A DNA stretch of 64,000 nucleotides from an uncultured Lachnospiraceae bacterium (GCA_900314085.1 OMTX01000138.1:340-64339), one strand, 5' to 3'; shown: positions 24,529-47,807, numbered from the stretch's first letter. The notes: a model not told the origin generated them from the letters alone. A program made the numbers and translations.

Positions 24529-25986
24529 TCAAACGGCACCCTCGAGCTTTTCGATGGCGGCGCGGATCCGGGCAAGGGACTCGTCCTTGCCGAGGAGCTC
24601 CATCAGTTCCGTTGCCCCGCCCGGCGTTGTAGGCTTGCCGGAAAGGGCGGTCCGGATGGGCCAAAAGACGAAGCCGTTCTTATAGCCCTTTTCCGATGCA
24701 AATTCTCCGCAGGCAGCAAAGAGGGCGTCGTTGGAATAGTCGTCCTGCTTTTCGAGAACCGGAAGGATTTCCTTCAGAAGCGTAAGGGAATTCTCCGGAT
24801 TCGTCTTCATCTTCTTGTGCGTATATAGGTCGATGGAATAGTCCGGTACAGCATCGATGAAATCAAAGAGCTCTGTCACATCCGGGAAGATTTCGATCCG
24901 GGACTGGGACATTTCTGCAAGCTTCCGATAGTCGACATCCCGCTTGACCGCATCCTTGAGATAGGGAAGAACCATCTCATAATACTTGTCGGGATCAAGC
25001 TTCTTCACATATTCCCCGTTCATCCACTTGAGCTTTACGGTATCGAAAACCGCCGGGGACTTGCTGATCCTGGTATAGTCAAAGGCCTTAATGAGTTCGT
25101 CAAGGGACATGACCTCATTGTCATCCTCCGGGCTCCAGCCAAGCAGGGCGACAAAGTTTACGACCGCCTCCGTCAGATACCCCTGCTCGATCAGGTCTTC
25201 AAAGGAAGAGTGGCCGCTGCGCTTTGAAAGCTTCTGGTGGTCCTCATTTGTGATCAGGGGGCAGTGGATATATTTCGGCACTTCCCAGCCGAAGGCCTCG
25301 TAGAGGCGGTTGTACTTGGGCGAGGAAGAAAGATACTCGTTTCCGCGGACAACATGGGTGATGCCCATGAGGTGATCGTCCACGACATTGGCGAAATTGT
25401 AGGTGGGGAAGCCGTCGGACTTGATCAGGATCATGTCGTCAAGCTCGGCGTTGTCCACCGTAATGTCCCCGTAGATTTCGTCGTGGAAGGTCGTCGTTCC
25501 CGTCCGGGGATTGTTCTGGCGGATGACATAGGGCATGCCGGAATCCAGATTTTTCTGCACCTCTTCCGGCGTCAGGGACAGGCAATGCTTGTCGTAAATC
25601 GATATTTCTTTCCCGTTCACGGTCTGCTTCAGGCCTTCAAGGCGCTCCGGCGTACAGAAGCAATAGTAGGCCTCGCCCTTCGCAATCAGTTCCTTCGCGT
25701 ATTTGAGATAGAGACCGGCCTCCTGCCGCTCGCTCTGCACATAGGGGCCGAAGTCTCCGCCGATATCCGGGCCTTCGTCCCAGGTCAGTCCTGTCTCCTT
25801 CAGGGTCCGGTAGATGATGTCAACGGCCCCTTCCACCTCCCGCACCTGGTCCGTGTCCTCAATGCGGAGGATGAAGTCACCGCCGGCATGGCGGGTAATG
25901 AGGTAGGCATAGAGCGCCGTGCGCAGATTGCCGACGTGCATGCGGCCGGTAGGGCTGGGGGCGAAACGGGTACGTACTTTTGACAT
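24529..25986 (-). CDS. gltX: Glutamate--tRNA ligase
   Basis: 485 aa. HIGH-type HVGNLRTAL and KMSKS-type KLSKRSG. Confidence 0.95.
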
Positions 25987-26190: not shown

Positions 26191-27372
26191 TCACTTCCCG
26201 GCCAGCCCGCAGAGCCTGTCCACGGAGGTGATGATTTCCAGAATTTCCGGCACGTAGTAGTCGTGTTCCCGCATCAGACGGTTGATCTCATCCCGCTCGC
26301 TCTTCACGGATTCCGTGTCATCTGCAATCTCCTGCGTGACCTTCTCCCGGCGGGCCAGAAGCTCCTCCTTTACCTTTTCCATATCGGAGCCCTTCACCAG
26401 GGAAGCCGGCTGCGAAAGCCAGATCTTCCGGTCATAGAGATCGAGCGGGGCAAGGAGGCGCATGAGCTTGCCCGAAAAATATTCGAGATCTTCATTGTCC
26501 GCCATATACTGCTCCTGCTCGCGGACAGCGGCAAGGTAGGCCTCCCACTTGTAATTGAGCTCATAGGAGGAGCCGACTTCAAACCGCGTCTTTTCGGACT
26601 CGAGGGCCCGTGACACTGTCGCAAACTTCACGCGGACGGAGTTCAAAAGAGACGTCGTCTGGTTCATTTGCCGGATTCGGGCACGCCGCTCCTTCCGAAG
26701 CGCCGACTGGCGAAGGAAAATCAGAAGTCCCGTCACGCCGCCGGCCAGGAGAAAGACGAGCATATAGTTTGAAACATCAATATCCGTCTGCATCCGCACC
26801 GCCATGAGGATGAAGAAGAACAGGGCGAAAACCACGAGGGCAAAGATGGAAAAACGGCCGAGAAGCCGGTCCGCCTTCCGGTTTCCCTCGATCTCATACC
26901 GGGCCTCTCCCCGCTCCCCCTCCAGAGTCGCCATATCGCGGCGGATTTTTTCCTGATAGTTTTCATTATTCTGCATGCGGACGATTTCTTCCGGCATCGT
27001 GTCGTCGTACTGCTGCATCAGGGTGAAGACGGAATCCGTGACCTTCTTGTCCTTCTTCAGGTAATCGTTTCTGGACTTCGCCAGATCCGTCACCTTCCCC
27101 GCCGTCTCGGAAATCTCCTTCCGCTTGTCCGCAGGCAGGTTTTCAATCTTCTCAACGTCTGCGATATAGGAATTGATGACGCGCAGGGACTTCTTCTCTC
27201 CCTCGACTTCCTTTGTCAGCGTGATGATCTGCTCGCAGGAATCCAGAATATAATGCTCGATCTTCCGCGGATCATCCCAGTCATCAATGGCTCGTATTTC
27301 CTTGTAGACCTCTTCGAACTGCTCGTCTAATTCTTCACTTTTCTTTTTTTTCGCTTTTCCGAACAAATGCAT
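26191..27372 (-). CDS. Hypothetical 2-TM coiled-coil membrane protein (last gene of the four-gene operon)
   Basis: 393 aa. Long charged helical N- and C-terminal halves flank two hydrophobic helices (FSIFALVVFALFFFILMAV and YMLVFLLAGGVTGLLIFL). No recognisable catalytic motif. Confidence 0.6.
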   Translation of the reverse strand: MHLFGKAKKKKSEELDEQFEEVYKEIRAIDDWDDPRKIEHYILDSCEQIITLTKEVEGEKKSLRVINSYIADVEKIENLPADKRKEISETAGKVTDLAKSRNDYLKKDKKVTDSVFTLMQQYDDTMPEEIVRMQNNENYQEKIRRDMATLEGERGEARYEIEGNRKADRLLGRFSIFALVVFALFFFILMAVRMQTDIDVSNYMLVFLLAGGVTGLLIFLRQSALRKERRARIRQMNQTTSLLNSVRVKFATVSRALESEKTRFEVGSSYELNYKWEAYLAAVREQEQYMADNEDLEYFSGKLMRLLAPLDLYDRKIWLSQPASLVKGSDMEKVKEELLARREKVTQEIADDTESVKSERDEINRLMREHDYYVPEILEIITSVDRLCGLAGK

Positions 27373-27430
27373 TCCTCGAAATAAATTTATGAATTACCGC
27401 AGGGCTTCGCAATTTTTTGGCACTTGTAAT

Positions 27431-28258
27431 TCAGATCCGGCATATTTTCCGGTAATCCTCTTCAAAGCCGCTGATGATGCGGGAAAGTTCCCTGTGGTAG
27501 GTCTCCCGGTCAGAATAATCCGAAGACATCCGGTCGACGCGGGAAGAAAAGTCCTGCACCGCCGGCCGGTTCATCGCTTCCTCCGCCCGCTTCTTCAGAC
27601 GCTGCTTTTCCTCAGCGCTCAGCAGGTACCGGTCTGCCTCGGAAGAAAAATTCTCCTCCTCCCCGTCAATGCAGAGGGTGACAAGGTAGGAGTATAGGGA
27701 CTCCCGGCTGCGGTTGGCCTCATAGGCGGAAAGGAAGCACTCCTCCGCTTCTTTAAAAAAGAAAAGATACGAGTAGCAGACGCCCAGGTTGTGGCGGATG
27801 TCACCCAGCAGGGGAAGGGCAATGTTTTCGGGATTTTCCAGGAGATACCCGTACTCGTACACGCTATCCACAATCCGCCCGCTCTGAAAAAGACGGTCCG
27901 CCCGCATCTTCCTGCATTCCGCCTCGGACTTGTTCTCGAAAGAAGAAAGCACAGAAAGGGTATCCCGCACTTCCTTCATCGTGAGATAGCCGTTTGCTGT
28001 CAGGATTTCCGCGACGAAATCCGTGAGCGTCGCATCATCGGAAATGAGGCGGCGCAGTCGGTCAGCCAGGTCCGATAGTCCCAGCTCTTTCTCAATCCAG
28101 TCCGCCAGCGAAGTGGACATAAAGTCATGGTTTAAAAGCCAGACATTGTGATAGATGTAATAGGACAGTTCCTCAACGGAATAGATGTTCAGGGACAGTT
28201 CGTCGATATAGTAGGGACTCGCCGCGACGCCGGAACAGGTTTTGATGAGTTCGCCCAT
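27431..28258 (-). CDS. Hypothetical helical (TPR-like?) protein
   Basis: 275 aa, all-helical composition. The ATG lies 3 nt after the upstream stop, with a GGAGAGAGAGG SD inside the upstream gene. Confidence 0.6.
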   Translation of the reverse strand: MGELIKTCSGVAASPYYIDELSLNIYSVEELSYYIYHNVWLLNHDFMSTSLADWIEKELGLSDLADRLRRLISDDATLTDFVAEILTANGYLTMKEVRDTLSVLSSFENKSEAECRKMRADRLFQSGRIVDSVYEYGYLLENPENIALPLLGDIRHNLGVCYSYLFFFKEAEECFLSAYEANRSRESLYSYLVTLCIDGEEENFSSEADRYLLSAEEKQRLKKRAEEAMNRPAVQDFSSRVDRMSSDYSDRETYHRELSRIISGFEEDYRKICRI

Positions 28259-28261
28259 AGC

Positions 28262-29578
28262 CTAGCCTCTCTCTCCGATCGTCGTTTCCCATGTCTTCTT
28301 GGTCTGGGGGGAAATCTCCCCGAAGCCCAGATCCCGGATGACGATCTTCACCTTCTGGTCAGATACGGGAACCGCTTCAATCCGAAGCCGTGTCGTCCGG
28401 TTTTCCCTTTTCGGCATGTCGTCAAGGGGAATCGTGAAGACCTCTCCCGTCCGTTCGTCCGGCTTCTGCAGCCAGCATTCGATTTCCGGAGAGCCGTCCA
28501 GTATGACCTCGCACTCTCCGTGGGCCTCGTACCAGCTGTCTCCTGCCGTAAGCAAGGTCACGAAACCCATTTCATTCCTGTCGAGAACCTTGAGGGAAAT
28601 ATTGACCTTGAGCTCATTGTCTCCGATGTAGACGAATGGCCAGTCGATATCCCCTCTCTCCACGATTCCTGCATAGCAGGCACCCTTGGAATAGAGGTTT
28701 TTCCCCATGAAAACCCGGCTCCCCTTCAGCATCCGCTGCAGGGAAATATTCATCCAGTTTCCCTCGAAGCCGCTTCCAATCAGGTAGACCGCGGAAATGG
28801 TATGGTCTTCGTAAATGCCGGAAAGGATATTGTCAAAGCAGAGGTCCCGGTTTTCCAGCATTTCCCCGTCCCCCGCACTCTCAAGGCTTACGGTTTCCGG
28901 CGTCGTGCTGCGGTTTCTCGTCAGCAGGCAGTGCATGATCCGTCCCCCGTCGTAGTCAAAAAGGAGGACGTCGCTCCGGTAAAGCTCGGGCTTCTGAGAC
29001 AGGGCATAATAATAAAAGCTCTCCGTCCTGTCTATGAGAAGCAGACAGTCCTGCTCGATGGAAAGGCGGCGGCAGACGGAAGAAAAGGTCTCGTGCAGAG
29101 CCTTTCCCGTATGCTCGGTACAGATGACCAGGCGGGAAAGAGGGCGTTTCTGAAAACCGATCAGGGGCAGCGTCAGAAGCTTCTTGAGGAAAACGGCCAG
29201 CAGGTCGCGGGCATCGTATTCCTCGGAATCCAGGTAGACCTTTTCCTCCCGCTCCGCCCTCTCCAGAAAGTCCGTGGCAGGAAGGGCCATGGAAAGGCGG
29301 ATCTGAGACAGGGCGTCGCTGCCGAAGAACCACTGGCCCAGCCCCTTCTTCTTCGCAAGAACCGTCGGAATCTGAAAGGAGTCCTCCCCCATGACTGTGC
29401 TGATGGTCTCCGGTTCCTCCATGCCCTCTACATAGTAGCTGACAAAAGTATATTCTCTTCCAATGTCGATGCCGACGATGACACCGTCTCTTTCATCTTC
29501 CATAGCAATCATTCCTGCTTTCCGCAGGCTGGGCAAAAAATGTGAAAAAGGGAACCGGGACGTCCGAAACCGGATCAC
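28262..29578 (-). CDS. Degenerate Hsp70/actin-fold ATPase-like protein with beta-sandwich C-terminal domain
   Basis: VIVGIDIGREYT (phosphate-1-like), VLLFDYDGGRI (phosphate-2-like), AVYLIGSGFEG (adenosine-motif-like), then a beta-rich C-terminus (KVNISLKVLDRNE...RLRIEAVPVSDQKVKIVIRDLGFG). The GTG start at 29578 overlaps the upstream stop (GTGA). Alternative ATG starts at 29512 and 29503. Confidence 0.6.
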   Translation of the reverse strand: MIRFRTSRFPFSHFLPSLRKAGMIAMEDERDGVIVGIDIGREYTFVSYYVEGMEEPETISTVMGEDSFQIPTVLAKKKGLGQWFFGSDALSQIRLSMALPATDFLERAEREEKVYLDSEEYDARDLLAVFLKKLLTLPLIGFQKRPLSRLVICTEHTGKALHETFSSVCRRLSIEQDCLLLIDRTESFYYYALSQKPELYRSDVLLFDYDGGRIMHCLLTRNRSTTPETVSLESAGDGEMLENRDLCFDNILSGIYEDHTISAVYLIGSGFEGNWMNISLQRMLKGSRVFMGKNLYSKGACYAGIVERGDIDWPFVYIGDNELKVNISLKVLDRNEMGFVTLLTAGDSWYEAHGECEVILDGSPEIECWLQKPDERTGEVFTIPLDDMPKRENRTTRLRIEAVPVSDQKVKIVIRDLGFGEISPQTKKTWETTIGERG

Positions 29579-32500
29579 CTCAGCGAGTAGAGTTCCCGGA
29601 CTGCCGAATCCAGGGCGGAAAAGCGCTTCATTCCGGAAAGCGTCTGCCGGTCATCCGAGAAATAGAGACCGGACCGCATGCGGTTGATGAGGCTGTAGCG
29701 GCTCTCCTGGCCTCCCGGAAATTCATCTGTACAGGAAATTTCGCCGGAATAGAGGACTGTCTCCGGTTCATCCCTGAGGCAGACCTCGTAGGAAACTTTG
29801 TCCCCAAAAAAGAGGACGAACTGGCAGACATAAATGCTGGGATACATCTCCACCATTTCCGCGTGAATTTCCCCCCTGTCCCCATTTCGAAGGCAGATGT
29901 CGATGCGCTGCCCCTCTTCCCCCTCGTAGGTGATGAAATACTTGTCATAGAGGTGAAAGCGGATCCGAAGGTCATCCGGGCACTGCCTGTAGAAGTCGAA
30001 GTAGAGATTCTTCCGGATGGCTTCCGACAGAAGCTTTGTCAGAAGCGCCTTTTCCTTCCCGGAAAGCGCATCCTTCCTGCAGAGAAATGAAAGCAGGCCG
30101 ACGAGACAGCTTTCATTCAGCTTCTCTCCCCTGTCATAGTAGGCCGTGAGGTGGCTGAAGACAGACGCCGGAACATCTTCCCGGTGCTTCAGGTAGGCAT
30201 GAGCCCAGTAGGTAATCCAGGCTTCCGCAATCATACGATTGGGATGGGCGGACAGGTAGTCCTCGAATATAGTTTCTGCTTCGTCCGGGAATTTTTCCGC
30301 ATAGAGCATTTCCGTCACGGTCCTCTCGGCCAGGTCGGCCGTCGGCAGGGACAGGGCATTCATGTGCTTCCAGATTTCCGCCATGACCTTTTCCGGTCCT
30401 ACATAGAAGTCTCCGAGGTAGGAAATCGTCGTCTCATTGTCCAGATACTGGCTCATGAGATACGCCGCCATGGATATGAGGAAATCATCCGGATTTGAGG
30501 GATTTTCCCCGATCTCATGTGTCACCAGGGAAAGCAGAGACCGGCCGGTCGCCCCAAGTCCGATATAGGACCGGAGCAGGGAATAGGCAGCCTCCGGATT
30601 TCCACCGATGGAAAAGAGGTCGATGCAGTAGCAGATGGTTCGCGTGTCGAGGCAGGAATAGTCTGTCTCCCTCAGGAGGTAGCGTTCAAAAACATCCTCC
30701 CGGAGGACTCTCCGCAGATATTGAATGAATAATGTAAAGCGCTCCGTTTTGTAGCAATAGCGGATATCCGGGCAGTCTAAGAAGGCGCCGACCGTATCGG
30801 CTGCATCCGGCCCGATTTCCTTTTCCGTTGTAATGTCATTCAGTTCATAGCGGAAATAGGGAAGAAGGTCTTTGGCTTCCTTCGTAAGCTTCGGCAGAAT
30901 CCGCGAGAGGTCCATCATCTCCCGCGTAAGGATGAAACCCTTTTCAGCTACATAGAGCCCGCCGTCGAGTTCGAGAAAGACACGGAAAGTCTTACAGGAT
31001 ATGGGGGCAAAAGCGGTATTTCGTATGACGGGAACATATACGGGCTCCTCCGAATCGTCCGTCACAATGACCGCCCTGCGCACATCCCCGATGCTGCAGG
31101 ATATCTGCACGGGAACGAGCAGGTCGGCAAAGGAAGCCGCCACGTCACTGTCAATGATTCCCCGGTCCAGCACATCCTGGTAAATGACCGCCAGATTGTC
31201 GTCGAGCCGCCGATGCCTCATCATCTCCAGGGCAAAGGTTTCAACGGTCTTCTTTGTCTCTTCATATACCGAAGGGCACTCCGCCTTGTGGGAAATCATA
31301 GAGGCGTAGACAAAAGCCTTTCGGTCAAAGCTGATGGTATTCGTATAGCCGAAGTAGCGGAGTACGTCCTCCGGCAGCGGCCTGGCATAATCCTCAGGAA
31401 GGCTCATCACATAGGCTTCGTAAAGCCCCGTCAGGGAAAGCCCGCTCTTGACGGCCAGGGCATACCAGGGCAGGGAGTCAGGCCCGTAGATGCTGTTTCT
31501 GAGCAGGTAGCGGAGGGCAGCGTCCAGAAGTTCCGGGGAAGGATTTGCCCCGTAGCACTTCCGGACAAGGAAGAAGACCTTTTTGTCAAAGACCTTCTCC
31601 CTGCCAAGCAGGGTGGCAAGCCGCATGGCGATATTCCCTGTCAGACGGTCCTTCCGGGCTCCCCAGGTCAGAATGCGGAGGGTAAAGGGATCGAATTCTT
31701 TGATGAGCAGTGGGTCCTTTTTCAAGACAGACAAGGCTTCCACATATAGAAACGGAGACGAGCAGCCGGCCATGACGAACTGCCGGATGTCGGAAAGCTC
31801 CTTCATTCCGTTTGACACATAGTCTTCCCGCAGGAAAAGGAGAAGCCAGAAGATGCGCACATCTCCCTCCCGCTCGCGGAAAATGCCCTCGACCTCTGCC
31901 GTCAGCCGGTCCACATAGGTCTTGTCCCGTTCGAGCAGGGTACAGAGGTAGAGGAGGTAGGCCCATTCAAAGGACTTGCGGTCGGGGATGTCCGCCCGCA
32001 GGTCTTCTACCATGGACAGGGCTTCTGCCTTCTTGCCATCCACGATGAGGACCTGGGTCCTGATCAGCTTTAAGAGCAGCTCCCTGTCCTCAGTACAAGC
32101 CCCCTCCATCGTATCAAGAACGGCAGCCGTTTTTCCCAGCCATTCATCCGCAGAGAACTTTCCGAAACGGTAATTGAGATAGCCTTCCGCCAGGGAAACT
32201 GAGCCCCTCAGGAGAATCCTCTCCGTATCATTCCGGTCATGGCCTGCGGACTTTCGGGTACACAGAAGTGTCAGCGTCTTCTCGTCATTGGTTCCGGAAA
32301 AGGTAATGCGGCAGTAGTTCTTTCCCGCATGCATGCGCTCCGGGTGGAGGAAAAAGCTGTACCTGCAGACACTGCCCACAAAGAAATCATTGGTCAGATC
32401 CGTCTGCCCCAGGGTAACGAAGTCACTATCACAGGAAACCCGGATTCTGAGATAGCCCCACGCGGACCGGGAAATTTCAATGGTCTTTCTCTCCGTCTCC

Positions 32501-33096
32501 TCTCCGACGGCATACGTCAGGGATGTCTCGGAAATTTCGAAGTGGACTCTTGCCTTAAGTCCCGCCCCCGTCAGAAATTCCTCCATATTGTCCGGCGTTT
32601 TCGGGAATAGGCGGTAGCCTCTGTAGAGAAGTTCAAACTCCTTCCCGCACCGTCCGGCGAAAGACGCAAAGGCATCCGAGGAAAAGAGCTCCATCGCAGC
32701 CGAAGGCTTTTTCCGGTAAAGATCTGCAAAGTCTTCGGGTGTTCGGATTTCTTCCCCTTCCGCAAGCAGTTTTTTGGGAACATAGGTAATCCGATAGGGA
32801 ATATCAAAGGTCTTTCCCTGGATGAGAATATAGAAATCCCCGGAAAGGACATCGCCGGCCCGGGCGCCTGCCATCGCGGCGGAAAAGCGGATAGCAATCT
32901 CAACTCCTTCAAAGGAAGGGTTCAAAACTGCAACATAGGGATTGGAAGAGAAAGCCATCCCACGGAGAACCGTGCCGTCAGTGGAAGAAAAGGAAAAAGT
33001 CCCGGAAAAAGGCTCCCGTTCCACGGCCGTGAGATCGATGGACTCCGTATCGAATTGTATGTGCTCCGGTGCCGGATCAAACCGGTCCTCGGACAT
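29575..33096 (-). CDS. Giant hypothetical protein (~1170 aa): N-terminal beta domains, ~750-aa alpha-helical repeat body, C-terminal beta domain
   Basis: Uninterrupted ORF with coding-like composition. ATG at 33096 is preferred over TTG at 33117. No nucleotide-binding or catalytic motif recognised. May correspond to a DUF5717-type family, but that is from memory and unverified. Confidence 0.65.
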   Translation of the reverse strand: MSEDRFDPAPEHIQFDTESIDLTAVEREPFSGTFSFSSTDGTVLRGMAFSSNPYVAVLNPSFEGVEIAIRFSAAMAGARAGDVLSGDFYILIQGKTFDIPYRITYVPKKLLAEGEEIRTPEDFADLYRKKPSAAMELFSSDAFASFAGRCGKEFELLYRGYRLFPKTPDNMEEFLTGAGLKARVHFEISETSLTYAVGEETERKTIEISRSAWGYLRIRVSCDSDFVTLGQTDLTNDFFVGSVCRYSFFLHPERMHAGKNYCRITFSGTNDEKTLTLLCTRKSAGHDRNDTERILLRGSVSLAEGYLNYRFGKFSADEWLGKTAAVLDTMEGACTEDRELLLKLIRTQVLIVDGKKAEALSMVEDLRADIPDRKSFEWAYLLYLCTLLERDKTYVDRLTAEVEGIFREREGDVRIFWLLLFLREDYVSNGMKELSDIRQFVMAGCSSPFLYVEALSVLKKDPLLIKEFDPFTLRILTWGARKDRLTGNIAMRLATLLGREKVFDKKVFFLVRKCYGANPSPELLDAALRYLLRNSIYGPDSLPWYALAVKSGLSLTGLYEAYVMSLPEDYARPLPEDVLRYFGYTNTISFDRKAFVYASMISHKAECPSVYEETKKTVETFALEMMRHRRLDDNLAVIYQDVLDRGIIDSDVAASFADLLVPVQISCSIGDVRRAVIVTDDSEEPVYVPVIRNTAFAPISCKTFRVFLELDGGLYVAEKGFILTREMMDLSRILPKLTKEAKDLLPYFRYELNDITTEKEIGPDAADTVGAFLDCPDIRYCYKTERFTLFIQYLRRVLREDVFERYLLRETDYSCLDTRTICYCIDLFSIGGNPEAAYSLLRSYIGLGATGRSLLSLVTHEIGENPSNPDDFLISMAAYLMSQYLDNETTISYLGDFYVGPEKVMAEIWKHMNALSLPTADLAERTVTEMLYAEKFPDEAETIFEDYLSAHPNRMIAEAWITYWAHAYLKHREDVPASVFSHLTAYYDRGEKLNESCLVGLLSFLCRKDALSGKEKALLTKLLSEAIRKNLYFDFYRQCPDDLRIRFHLYDKYFITYEGEEGQRIDICLRNGDRGEIHAEMVEMYPSIYVCQFVLFFGDKVSYEVCLRDEPETVLYSGEISCTDEFPGGQESRYSLINRMRSGLYFSDDRQTLSGMKRFSALDSAVRELYSLR

Positions 33097-33222
33097 CCGC
33101 CAGATCTTCCGTCTCAAGGGAACGCGCTCCTAAGTGAATATGCTATAATGAAAAAAGGCTATAATAATAAAGATTATAACTTATTTCTAAGGAAATTGGA
33201 AAACTTTTGGAGGACCAGGAAT

Positions 33223-34314
33223 ATGCCGGACATACAGGAACAGTTTCACGGATCTGACCTTGAAAAGATAGAAGCAGTATACCACATCCGGAAGGAAGAA
33301 ATCACCTCTTTTTCCGCGAATGTGAATCCTTTAGGCATCTCCCCTCTCCTCCGGACGAAGCTCGCCGAGAACATCGACTGCATCACGTCCTACCCGGACC
33401 GCAACTACACGGACCTGAAGGCGGCCATCGCGGATTATGCCGGTACCCGGCCGGAAAACATCCTGGTCGGCAACGGAACAACGGAACTCATTTCATTATT
33501 CATAGATATTGTATCCCCGAAAAAGGCGCAGATTCTCGGTCCCACCTATTCCGAATACGAGCGGTCCGTCTCCCTCTGCGGCGGGCGGACGACCTACTAT
33601 CCCCTGCAGGAAGCGGATGACTTCCGTCTGGATATCAAAGATTTCACAAAAGCCCTGACCGCGGATACGGACCTCCTCATCATCTGCTCCCCGAACAATC
33701 CGACGGGCACGGCTATCCGGCGGTCCGATATGCGGCGGATCCTCGACGTCTGCAAGGAGAAGGCCATCTTTGTGATGGTGGACGAGACGTACATAGAGTT
33801 TTCGGACGACGTCGAAGAATTCACGGCGATTCCGCTGACGGATTATTATAATAATCTTTTTGTCCTGCGTTCGACATCCAAGTTCTTCGCCTGCCCGGGC
33901 CTCCGCCTCGGCTATGCCGTCACAGGAAACCGCGATATGTTCTCTGACGTGAATCGGAAGAAGAACCCCTGGATGATCCACTCGCTCGCTGCGCTCGCGG
34001 GGCAGTACATGTTCCGCGACGAAGAATATATCTGCGCCACGCGGAGCCTCATTTCCGCAGAAAGAAAAAGGCTCTTTGAGATGTACTCAAAGAGCCCCCG
34101 CTTCAAGCCCTATAAGCCCGAAGGGAATTTCATGCTGATGCGGATAGAGGATGAAGGAACGAATGCCCACGCCCTCTTCGAAAAAGCCATCAAAGAAAAG
34201 ATGATGATTCGCGACTGCTCAAGCTTTCCCTTCCTCTCCGACCGCTACATAAGGATCTGCTTCATGAATCCGGCGGACAACGACAGGCTATACCGGTGCC
34301 TGACTGAGAGCTGA
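33223..34314 (+). CDS. PLP-dependent class I/II aminotransferase family (HisC / CobD threonine-phosphate decarboxylase-like)
   Basis: 363 aa from ATG 33223 (GGAGG SD). SANVNPLGISP...ILVGNGTTELI...RSTSKFFACPGLRLGY (PLP-lysine motif). Confidence 0.8.
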   Translation: MPDIQEQFHGSDLEKIEAVYHIRKEEITSFSANVNPLGISPLLRTKLAENIDCITSYPDRNYTDLKAAIADYAGTRPENILVGNGTTELISLFIDIVSPKKAQILGPTYSEYERSVSLCGGRTTYYPLQEADDFRLDIKDFTKALTADTDLLIICSPNNPTGTAIRRSDMRRILDVCKEKAIFVMVDETYIEFSDDVEEFTAIPLTDYYNNLFVLRSTSKFFACPGLRLGYAVTGNRDMFSDVNRKKNPWMIHSLAALAGQYMFRDEEYICATRSLISAERKRLFEMYSKSPRFKPYKPEGNFMLMRIEDEGTNAHALFEKAIKEKMMIRDCSSFPFLSDRYIRICFMNPADNDRLYRCLTES

Positions 34315-47630: not shown

Positions 47631-47807
47631 ATTGTATAACCATCGGATTGCTCCGTCGCTGCGCGACTCTCGCAATCCTCCCCTCAAGCTCACGCTTTAC
47701 TGCTGTATACACAGCATCGCGTTCGCTTGAGGGGGCGGGCCATTAACGAATGTCCATTGAAAAACAGGTTTTCCAATGTCCATTCGTTTTGGCCCTGGTT
47801 ATACAAT
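47631..47807 (-). other. Compact multi-hairpin (four-way-junction-like) element between the rhomboid-like gene and glnS
   Basis: A 12-bp closing stem (47631-47642/47796-47807) encloses three abutting hairpins at 47645-47678, 47680-47734 and 47738-47794, with linkers of 0-3 nt. Confidence 0.5.

Follow-up and report, generated by a model that had tools for sequence, protein, structure and literature searches.

A conserved operon of Lachnospiraceae combining a lidless Hsp70-like protein with a TPR protein, a predicted scaffold and a membrane hairpin protein

The 64,000-nucleotide (nt) stretch of DNA studied here (hereafter "the window"; uncultured Lachnospiraceae bacterium, GCA_900314085.1 OMTX01000138.1:340-64339) carries on its minus strand a four-gene operon, the second gene of which encodes a protein with the fold and domain layout of the Hsp70 chaperones, minus their α-helical lid. 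According to our preferred interpretation, to which we assign a probability of about 0.45, the operon would encode a membrane-tethered and presumably constitutive complex organised around this Hsp70-derived protein, devoid of J-protein and of exchange factor and having a chaperone or assembly role. An earlier note, written from the sequence alone, had described four co-directional open reading frames (ORFs), and the ORF list does contain them on the minus strand at 29575-33117, 28262-29578, 27431-28258 and 26191-27372. Once the start of the second ORF is revised (see below), the four genes are the following, all positions being those of the whole window:

29575-33117, minus strand: gene 1 (ORF list), 1180 residues from TTG 33117 or 1173 residues from ATG 33096
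28262-29503, minus strand: gene 2, 413 residues, start placed by homologues
27431-28258, minus strand: gene 3, a 275-residue partner containing a tetratricopeptide repeat (TPR)
26191-27372, minus strand: gene 4, a 393-residue membrane anchor

The taxonomic distribution of the operon was examined through a one-genome-per-species scan for relatives of gene 2, from which 80 loci were kept. At least 586 species encode such a relative, while an exhaustive search with the gene 2 profile returned 1603 clusters at 50% identity (E ≤ 1e-3), or 627 at E ≤ 1e-30. Wherever a taxon below the order is named, the 80 loci belong to Lachnospiraceae, with the genera Roseburia, Agathobacter, Pseudobutyrivibrio, Lachnobacterium, Candidatus Pullilachnospira and Candidatus Weimeria among them (the labels of three locus records go no further than "bacterium" or "Clostridiales bacterium"), and a Butyrivibrio fibrisolvens homologue is found among the protein matches of gene 2. 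In 66 of the 67 loci having room for all four genes, the set is complete, co-directional and identically ordered, the median gaps being 11, 4.5 and 16 nt. This gene-neighbourhood survey thus bears out both the co-occurrence of the four genes and the single conserved operon of uncharacterised proteins that the earlier note had proposed, and the arrangement is far beyond chance. Gene order persists even at gene 1 identities of 22–30%, and gene 2 is the most conserved member (median identity of 49% vs. 32–39% for the other three). Extra upstream genes seen in distant clades were considered as possible core members and rejected as clade-specific.

Gene 2 is a member of the family DUF5716 (DUF5716_C, PF18980: 314.4 bits, E 7.9e-94, for a cut-off of 34.7). 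Its AlphaFold2 model, computed from 51 homologues (mean predicted local distance difference test, pLDDT, of 88.1; predicted template modelling score, pTM, of 0.82), together with motif conservation, delineates three parts:

28643-29503, minus strand: nucleotide-binding domain, about residues 1-287 (AlphaFold2 model)
residues 288-299, minus strand: conserved interdomain linker (motif conservation)
28274-28606, minus strand: β-sandwich resembling the β part of the Hsp70 substrate-binding domain (SBD-β), about residues 300-410 (AlphaFold2 model)

When this model is compared to the PDB with Foldseek, the top 50 matches are all Hsp70/Hsp110 chains (best E 8.1e-20), and the structures matched include DnaK, Hsc70, BiP, mortalin, Ssb, Ssz1 and Sse1. 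The alignments extend over 506–567 columns (chains of DnaK, BiP, Hsc70 and Ssz1 at E 8e-20 to 1e-12) and therefore cover both the nucleotide-binding domain and the β-sandwich, so that the β-sandwich which the earlier note had seen at the end of the protein is confirmed by the model as well as by the fold search. The three motifs from which that note started, GIDIGREYT, LLFDYDGGR and VYLIGSGFEG, are present in the sequence, and in the model they lie in the expected order, on the hairpins and loop of the phosphate-1, phosphate-2 and adenosine sites of the ASKHA (acetate and sugar kinases/Hsp70/actin) fold. Its description of gene 2 as an Hsp70-type ASKHA protein with substituted nucleotide loops is one on which fold search and loop conservation agree.

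Two features set gene 2 apart within this fold. Its last β-strand spans residues 404–410 and the protein ends at residue 413, i.e., right behind the sandwich, hence the absence of the α-helical lid (SBD-α). In the secondary structure of the model, moreover, the phosphate-2 hairpin is separated from the adenosine strand by essentially one helix, so that subdomain IIB would be nearly absent. Residue conservation, computed across 202 family members, is concentrated in the acidic core (D13 in 95%, D158 in 99%, E161 in 99% and D183 in 85%), in the adenosine loop (G243 in 100%, G245 in 99%) and in the linker (W288 in 98%, G294 in 99%, N296 in 97%, K299 in 99%). In one related genome, a canonical dnaK (L006:3078-4820) precedes gene 1 by about 1.6 kb and is co-directional with it, a placing that is probably coincidental. 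Gene 2 is therefore an extra paralogue rather than a replacement for DnaK, and this genome shows that hosts retain a normal Hsp70 besides gene 2.

Gene 3 has no Pfam family of its own, and its searches against the PDB, by sequence and by profile, gave generic TPR matches only. Three parts can be distinguished on the minus strand:

residues 1-100: conserved N-terminal domain, the most conserved part in orthologues
27692-27793 (residues 156-189): TPR motif (TPR_2 match)
after the TPR motif: helical-looking tail

The TPR_2 match is found in 38 of 38 orthologues and is the one TPR motif that is statistically robust by itself. With the gene 3 profile, consensus TPR proteins are recovered at E 1e-33, and FKBP51-type TPR domains give a weak match covering residues 105–259 (E 0.003–0.03). 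That gene 3 might be a paralogue of part of gene 1 was rejected, as an hhalign comparison of the two genes revealed no relation.

The relationship between genes 2 and 3 is most directly visible in natural fusions. Among the best 150 representatives (at 50% identity) of the gene 2 family, one being the window's own protein, six of the 149 others are fusion proteins of 684–745 residues in which the gene 2 part comes first and the gene 3 part is recognised at E 1e-33 to 5e-74 behind a linker of 12–31 residues. None of the six retains a methionine at the start position of gene 3, and on one contig (L093) the junction between the two genes reads through without a stop. We regard such fusions as strong evidence that genes 2 and 3 act together. 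They also put gene 3 directly behind the β-sandwich, in the position of the lid of ordinary Hsp70s.

Gene 1 matches DUF5717_N (659.9 bits, E 6.5e-198) and DUF5717 (239.4 bits, E 6.6e-71), the Pfam gathering cut-off being 25 bits for each of these two models (PF18984 and PF18983). The DUF5716/DUF5717 labels that the earlier note had mentioned are consequently correct, both DUF5717 models and DUF5716_C being matched above their gathering cut-offs. We detected 104 homologues of gene 1 at 21–100% identity, and 67 of 19–72% identity to the window protein entered an AlphaFold2 model (mean pLDDT 87.0), which yields the following succession in the numbering of the 1173-residue form:

residues 13-117: β-sandwich
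residues 120-177: helical insert
residues 186-281: second β-sandwich
residues 286-659: TPR-like α-solenoid
residues 662-726: central β domain
residues 734-1046: second TPR-like α-solenoid
residues 1052-1121: C-terminal β-sandwich
residues 1133-1169: two C-terminal helices

The β domains and helical repeats described in the earlier note are thus recovered, but its list had omitted the central β domain at residues 662–726. The Foldseek matches of the model fall into two groups. One consists of tandem ASH/PapD-like immunoglobulin (Ig) domains (E 1e-7 to 1e-4), from ciliary central-apparatus proteins, the SPD-2 domain of CEP192 and the P. gingivalis structure 2qsv; the other consists of TPR superhelix scaffolds (E 4e-6 to 3e-4), namely Naa15, Ctr9, Ski3, IFT-A subunits and UNC-45. 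No enzyme fold appeared among the Foldseek matches, all of the resemblance being to scaffolds, in line with the earlier observation that gene 1 lacks a catalytic motif, and its invariant residues are chiefly aromatic or glycine. The model therefore supports the view of gene 1 as a non-catalytic scaffold made of β domains and solenoids. By sequence and by profile, the PDB gave no match to gene 1.

The length of gene 1 varies across the family, from about 1030 residues (P0204 and P0209) to 1283–1352 residues (P0203, P0205-P0207 and P0210). The longer variants carry an insertion of 100–160 residues near profile position 524, and metagenomes contain the short form in great abundance (1108 member sequences). 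The one insertion variant that was checked, P0205 (loci L081 and L082), belongs to a cluster without gene 4. A membrane anchor was looked for inside the longer variants and none was found, the added length being the 100–160-residue insertion.

Gene 4 is defined by a single recognisable element:

26704-26874, minus strand: hydrophobic hairpin, about residues 167-223 (hydropathy and orthologues)

This hydrophobic block of about 57 residues, which offers room for two membrane helices joined by a very short loop, is found in 35 of 35 orthologues, and the two transmembrane helices and the role of membrane anchor which the earlier note had attributed to gene 4 hold on both counts. What is kept in the hairpin is its hydrophobicity only. 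Conserved polar residues are found in the charged flanking parts, which are predicted to be cytoplasmic domains; a C-terminal motif, SVDKLCG, is conserved as well. In contrast, the long coiled coils claimed for these flanks are unsupported, the maximum of our (crude) heptad test being equalled by 19% of shuffled sequences. All 333 homologues detected are unnamed and none has a Pfam domain. Gene 4 itself has no significant Pfam or PDB match, and Pfam scans of the 35 orthologues returned only noise driven by the transmembrane hairpin. Across all four proteins, NCBIfam gave nothing significant (sole listing: gene 4, far sub-threshold, E 0.32). Altogether, Pfam, NCBIfam, PADLOC and the PDB, as well as Foldseek for gene 1, did not clearly relate either gene 1 or gene 4 to any characterised system, in keeping with the interpretation of the earlier note.

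These elements could be assembled as follows. Gene 2, the conserved core, would be a minimal Hsp70 reduced to an actin-like nucleotide-binding domain, a linker and a lidless substrate-binding β-sandwich, to the C-terminal side of which gene 3 would bind directly, at the site occupied by the lid in ordinary Hsp70s. Gene 1, with its Ig-like domains and TPR solenoids, would be a large non-catalytic platform able to receive clients or additional partners, and the two-helix hairpin of gene 4 would hold the whole at the membrane, on its cytoplasmic side. The β-sandwich would clamp an extended peptide, belonging either to a client or, as a pseudo-substrate, to a partner, and this clamping would perhaps be controlled by the nucleotide state of the N-terminal domain. 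The complex would work without a J-protein or a nucleotide-exchange factor, and the presumed loss of subdomain IIB would fit the missing exchange factor. It would be expressed in growing Lachnospiraceae cells. The earlier note had spoken of a "membrane-associated structural or remodelling machine", which is likewise what one would infer from the architecture.

Several observations weigh against this proposal. At the level of the sequence, gene 2 has no match to Pfam HSP70 (PF00012) at E ≤ 1, and its profile aligns to E. coli DnaK with an hhalign probability of only 0.3% (the DnaK sequence used matches the dnaK of locus L006 at 57% identity); searches of the PDB by sequence and by profile did not return any match either. 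Across the 202 family members, positions 15–18 and 185–188 of the phosphate loops are variable (G186 in 54%), and the glycine-rich phosphate-1 (DxGTTxS) and phosphate-2 (DLGGGTFD) loops are not conserved, for which reason ATP binding or hydrolysis may have been lost, as in Ssz1. The C-terminus of gene 2 (...WETTIGERG; family consensus WEHTIxxx) is devoid of the EEVD-type motif for TPR docking. Gene 2 is Hsp70-like in fold and layout, yet it fails several defining Hsp70 sequence features. As to the partners, the cluster of at least one distant clade (L081/L082) has genes 1-3 only, without gene 4, and in another locus (L032) gene 4 went undetected, so that the membrane tether may not be required, or something else may take its place. 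Finally, we infer rather than observe the complex of all four proteins, including the contacts of genes 1 and 4.

The loops just described lead to the main rival account, in which gene 2 would be a pseudo-Hsp70 that has lost its ATPase and acts as a static adaptor in the manner of yeast Ssz1, its sandwich permanently holding a segment of one of the three other proteins while the activity of the complex would come from elsewhere. Besides the variability of the phosphate-binding hairpins, this account can draw on the absence of a lid in gene 2 and of any J-domain or GrpE in the operon and its neighbours (no DnaJ or GrpE family match was obtained for the four proteins or the immediate neighbours, in agreement with the earlier note), on the Ssz1 chains among the Foldseek matches, including an entry with a pseudo-substrate in its SBD, and on the stable fusions to gene 3. 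However, D13, D158, E161, D183 and the G-D-G adenosine loop are conserved at 85–100%, and the near-invariant linker would be unexpected if nucleotide-driven coupling had been lost. We consider the static adaptor doubtful, while granting it an appreciable chance.

The ASKHA fold of gene 2 also brings to mind a cytoskeletal system, with gene 2 polymerising like MreB, FtsA or ParM on the gene 4 anchor and gene 1 as a scaffold. The membrane-anchored partner, the core-genome and vertically inherited distribution within one family and the curved-rod morphology of many host genera would all fit, but the top 50 structural matches are exclusively of the Hsp70/Hsp110 type and include the SBD-β sandwich, which cytoskeletal ASKHA proteins do not have, gene 2 has no match to MreB, FtsA or another actin family in Pfam, and division or cell-wall genes are not consistently adjacent; we thus find it quite improbable. 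A role in anti-phage defence or conflict, with gene 1 as sensor, gene 2 as switch and gene 4 as effector, has in its favour nothing but the architecture (defence systems often feature sensors rich in repeats and small effectors in the membrane) and a weak, sub-threshold PADLOC match of gene 4 to a "4TM effector" (E 0.006). Against it, PADLOC returned nothing for genes 1 and 2 and noise at E ≥ 0.005 for genes 3 and 4, the cluster has no plasmid matches and the "viral" records that were opened are mislabelled bacterial DNA, while the identical chromosomal position beside housekeeping genes across genera and the predicted co-transcription with the essential gltX point elsewhere, making a defence system very improbable. 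Equally hard to credit is a sporulation-specific morphogenetic complex of Clostridia, even though the operon is restricted to Firmicutes and lies near spoIIA-sigF (L083) or cotJABC (L090) in some genomes. Such sporulation neighbours are inconsistent, the promoter candidate is sigma-70-like, co-transcription with gltX is predicted in many genomes, and the genes are strongly conserved in Butyrivibrio and Pseudobutyrivibrio, two genera described as non-spore-forming.

The layout of the operon requires one correction to the earlier note, which had given gene 2 a length of 438 residues from a GTG start. The GTGA at 29575-29578 exists, but its reading as a start/stop overlap, with gene 2 beginning there, is unlikely. 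An identical database protein has 413 residues, homologues have 409–419 and the DUF5716 family consensus begins 10 residues ahead of GIDIG, which together place the start at ATG 29503, leaving a spacer of 71 nt between the stop of gene 1 and this ATG. The other junctions are as the note had described them: the DNA reads TAG gct ATG in frame across the 3-nt gap between genes 2 and 3, a purine-rich stretch, GGAGAGAGAGG, lies within the end of gene 2 as a Shine-Dalgarno sequence inside the upstream gene, and 58 nt are seen ahead of gene 4. Regarding gene 1, the most likely start is TTG 33117 (1180 residues), owing to an AGGAG 9 nt upstream and to the N-terminus that homologues have in common, MRxxIxRxSED. 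A candidate promoter, proposed from its match to the consensus only, was found in the divergent intergenic region of about 105 nt (33118-33222) between gene 1 and an aminotransferase gene:

33173-33202, minus strand: sigma-70-like promoter candidate, TTTCCA-18-TATAAT (consensus scan, 10 of 12 matches)

The GC content of the region is unremarkable, and scans with Rfam and for tRNAs gave no match within the operon; the only Rfam match of the window is a Clostridiales-1 RNA (RF01699) at 47635-47803 on the minus strand (93.3 bits, E 1.3e-19). Antisense to gene 2, there is an ORF of 465 residues (28148-29545, plus strand), which has no supporting evidence and resembles a shadow ORF.

The flanks of the operon are of a housekeeping nature, comprising in the window a divergent CobD/HisC-like aminotransferase gene, a glutamate synthase gene, gltX, a gene for a UvrD/PcrA-like helicase and glgX. 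The aminotransferase, predicted to depend on pyridoxal phosphate (33223-34314, plus strand), scores just below the NCBIfam cut-offs for CobD (277.6 vs. 290.55 bits) and for HisC; its gene stands beside gene 1 in 49 of the 80 loci, all close ones, and also in the distant loci L081, L087 and L090, the shared intergenic region measuring roughly 100–200 nt. On the other side of the operon lies a gene that is not a core part of it:

24529-25986, minus strand: gltX, glutamate-tRNA ligase (TIGR00464, E 2.6e-147)

In the window, gltX is 204 nt downstream of gene 4. It occupies the downstream position, on the same strand, in 36 of the 80 loci, with a gap of less than 100 nt in 17 of these 36, and in eight the two genes are separated by at most 17 nt or overlap. 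As gltX is an essential gene, this predicted co-transcription speaks for expression of the operon in growing cells. In distant clades (among L081-L084, L088 and L091), the downstream gene is valS, at times behind a T-box leader of its own, and two different synthetases at one position are more than we would expect by chance. As gltX or valS recurs directly downstream, often overlapping, and as one ORF joins gene 4 to GltX, the module may, on a bold view that we hold to be unlikely, be tied to translation at the membrane, either as a bacterial counterpart of the ribosome-associated complex or as a scaffold holding aminoacyl-tRNA synthetases. The ORF in question, in a JGI metagenome (3300022135; L087:13473-16325), is 950 residues long and consists of a complete gene 4 part (hidden Markov model E 6e-114), an acidic linker of about 75 residues rich in Glu, Lys, Pro and Thr, and a complete GltX. 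Its linker DNA (225 nt) is purine-rich and without in-frame stop, and the ORF, found in one lineage only, could be either a real gene 4-GltX fusion or a stop-free spacer.

A phage or plasmid origin of the cluster was considered and rejected. No match was obtained in a search of plasmids, and although the cluster does occur in five GenBank records named "Bacteriophage sp." and in one IMG/VR contig, all of them are unverified metagenome contigs. In each of the three that were opened, the cluster is complete and has housekeeping genes beside it (gltX and a helicase gene in MT835719.1, valS in MT835486.1, the aminotransferase gene in IMG/VR UViG_3300007793_000024), and these three are therefore mislabelled fragments of bacterial chromosomes.

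Few protein machines have been studied as thoroughly as the Hsp70 systems, for which dependence on a J-protein and, in bacteria, also on GrpE is the accepted rule. With DnaK of the DnaK-DnaJ-GrpE system, gene 2 shares the passage from an actin-like nucleotide-binding domain through a linker to a β-sandwich, the order and spacing of the motifs and the core acidic residues. Unlike DnaK, it is lidless, about 225 residues shorter, devoid of similarity at the sequence level and of glycine-rich phosphate loops, and predicted from the model to have subdomain IIB reduced to about one helix; its operon partners are TPR/solenoid proteins and a membrane protein instead of a J-protein and GrpE. The ribosome-associated complex Ssz1-Zuo1 is comparable in that its Hsp70 is likewise atypical, has a truncated substrate domain and serves as a constitutive partner rather than a free chaperone, and the fusions of genes 2 and 3 imply a similarly permanent partnership. 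Yet gene 2 is partnered by a TPR protein instead of a J-protein, there are in addition a membrane anchor and a scaffold of 1180 residues, and the only hint at the ribosome is the recurrent aminoacyl-tRNA synthetase neighbour. Finally, the co-chaperones Hop, CHIP, FKBP51, Tom70 and Sec72 also pair a TPR protein with a protein of the Hsp70 fold, and the module is similar in principle to Tom70 and Sec72, which are membrane-tethered TPR receptors for Hsp70. It differs in that gene 2 lacks the EEVD tail, gene 3 has one robust TPR motif, and gene 3, where fused, follows the β-sandwich instead of being docked via a C-terminal peptide.

Genes 1 and 2 are members of catalogued families without functional description, and genes 3 and 4 are outside Pfam. 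Within the searchable literature, nothing relevant was found on the function of DUF5716/DUF5717 or on Hsp70-like proteins in Lachnospiraceae, the sole match to the family names being one mention of DUF5716 in a 2021 paper dealing with mismatch repair and curcuma derivatives. What appears to be undescribed in the searchable literature is DUF5716 as a lidless, IIB-poor derivative of Hsp70, the obligatory pairing of this derivative with a TPR protein (as a fusion in some lineages), and the accompanying giant Ig/TPR scaffold, membrane anchor and recurrent synthetase neighbour. The bolder claim that the module would represent a previously unrecognised class of Hsp70 machine, free of J-proteins and exchange factors and composed of a lidless, IIB-less core, a TPR "lid" provided in trans or by fusion, a giant Ig/TPR scaffold and a membrane tether, strikes us as unlikely.

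The interest of the module comes from its departure from the J-protein/GrpE rule and from its being core to abundant gut and rumen bacteria. It breaks the usual pattern with a conserved set of four proteins in which a minimal Hsp70 fold is accompanied by entirely different partners, and its hosts include dominant butyrate producers of these environments (such as Roseburia, Agathobacter, Butyrivibrio and Pseudobutyrivibrio). Once worked out, its role could reveal to what extent the Hsp70 fold tolerates reduction and new partners, and a function would thereby be assigned to two Pfam domains of unknown function and two unclassified families, all of them core genes of an ecologically important family.

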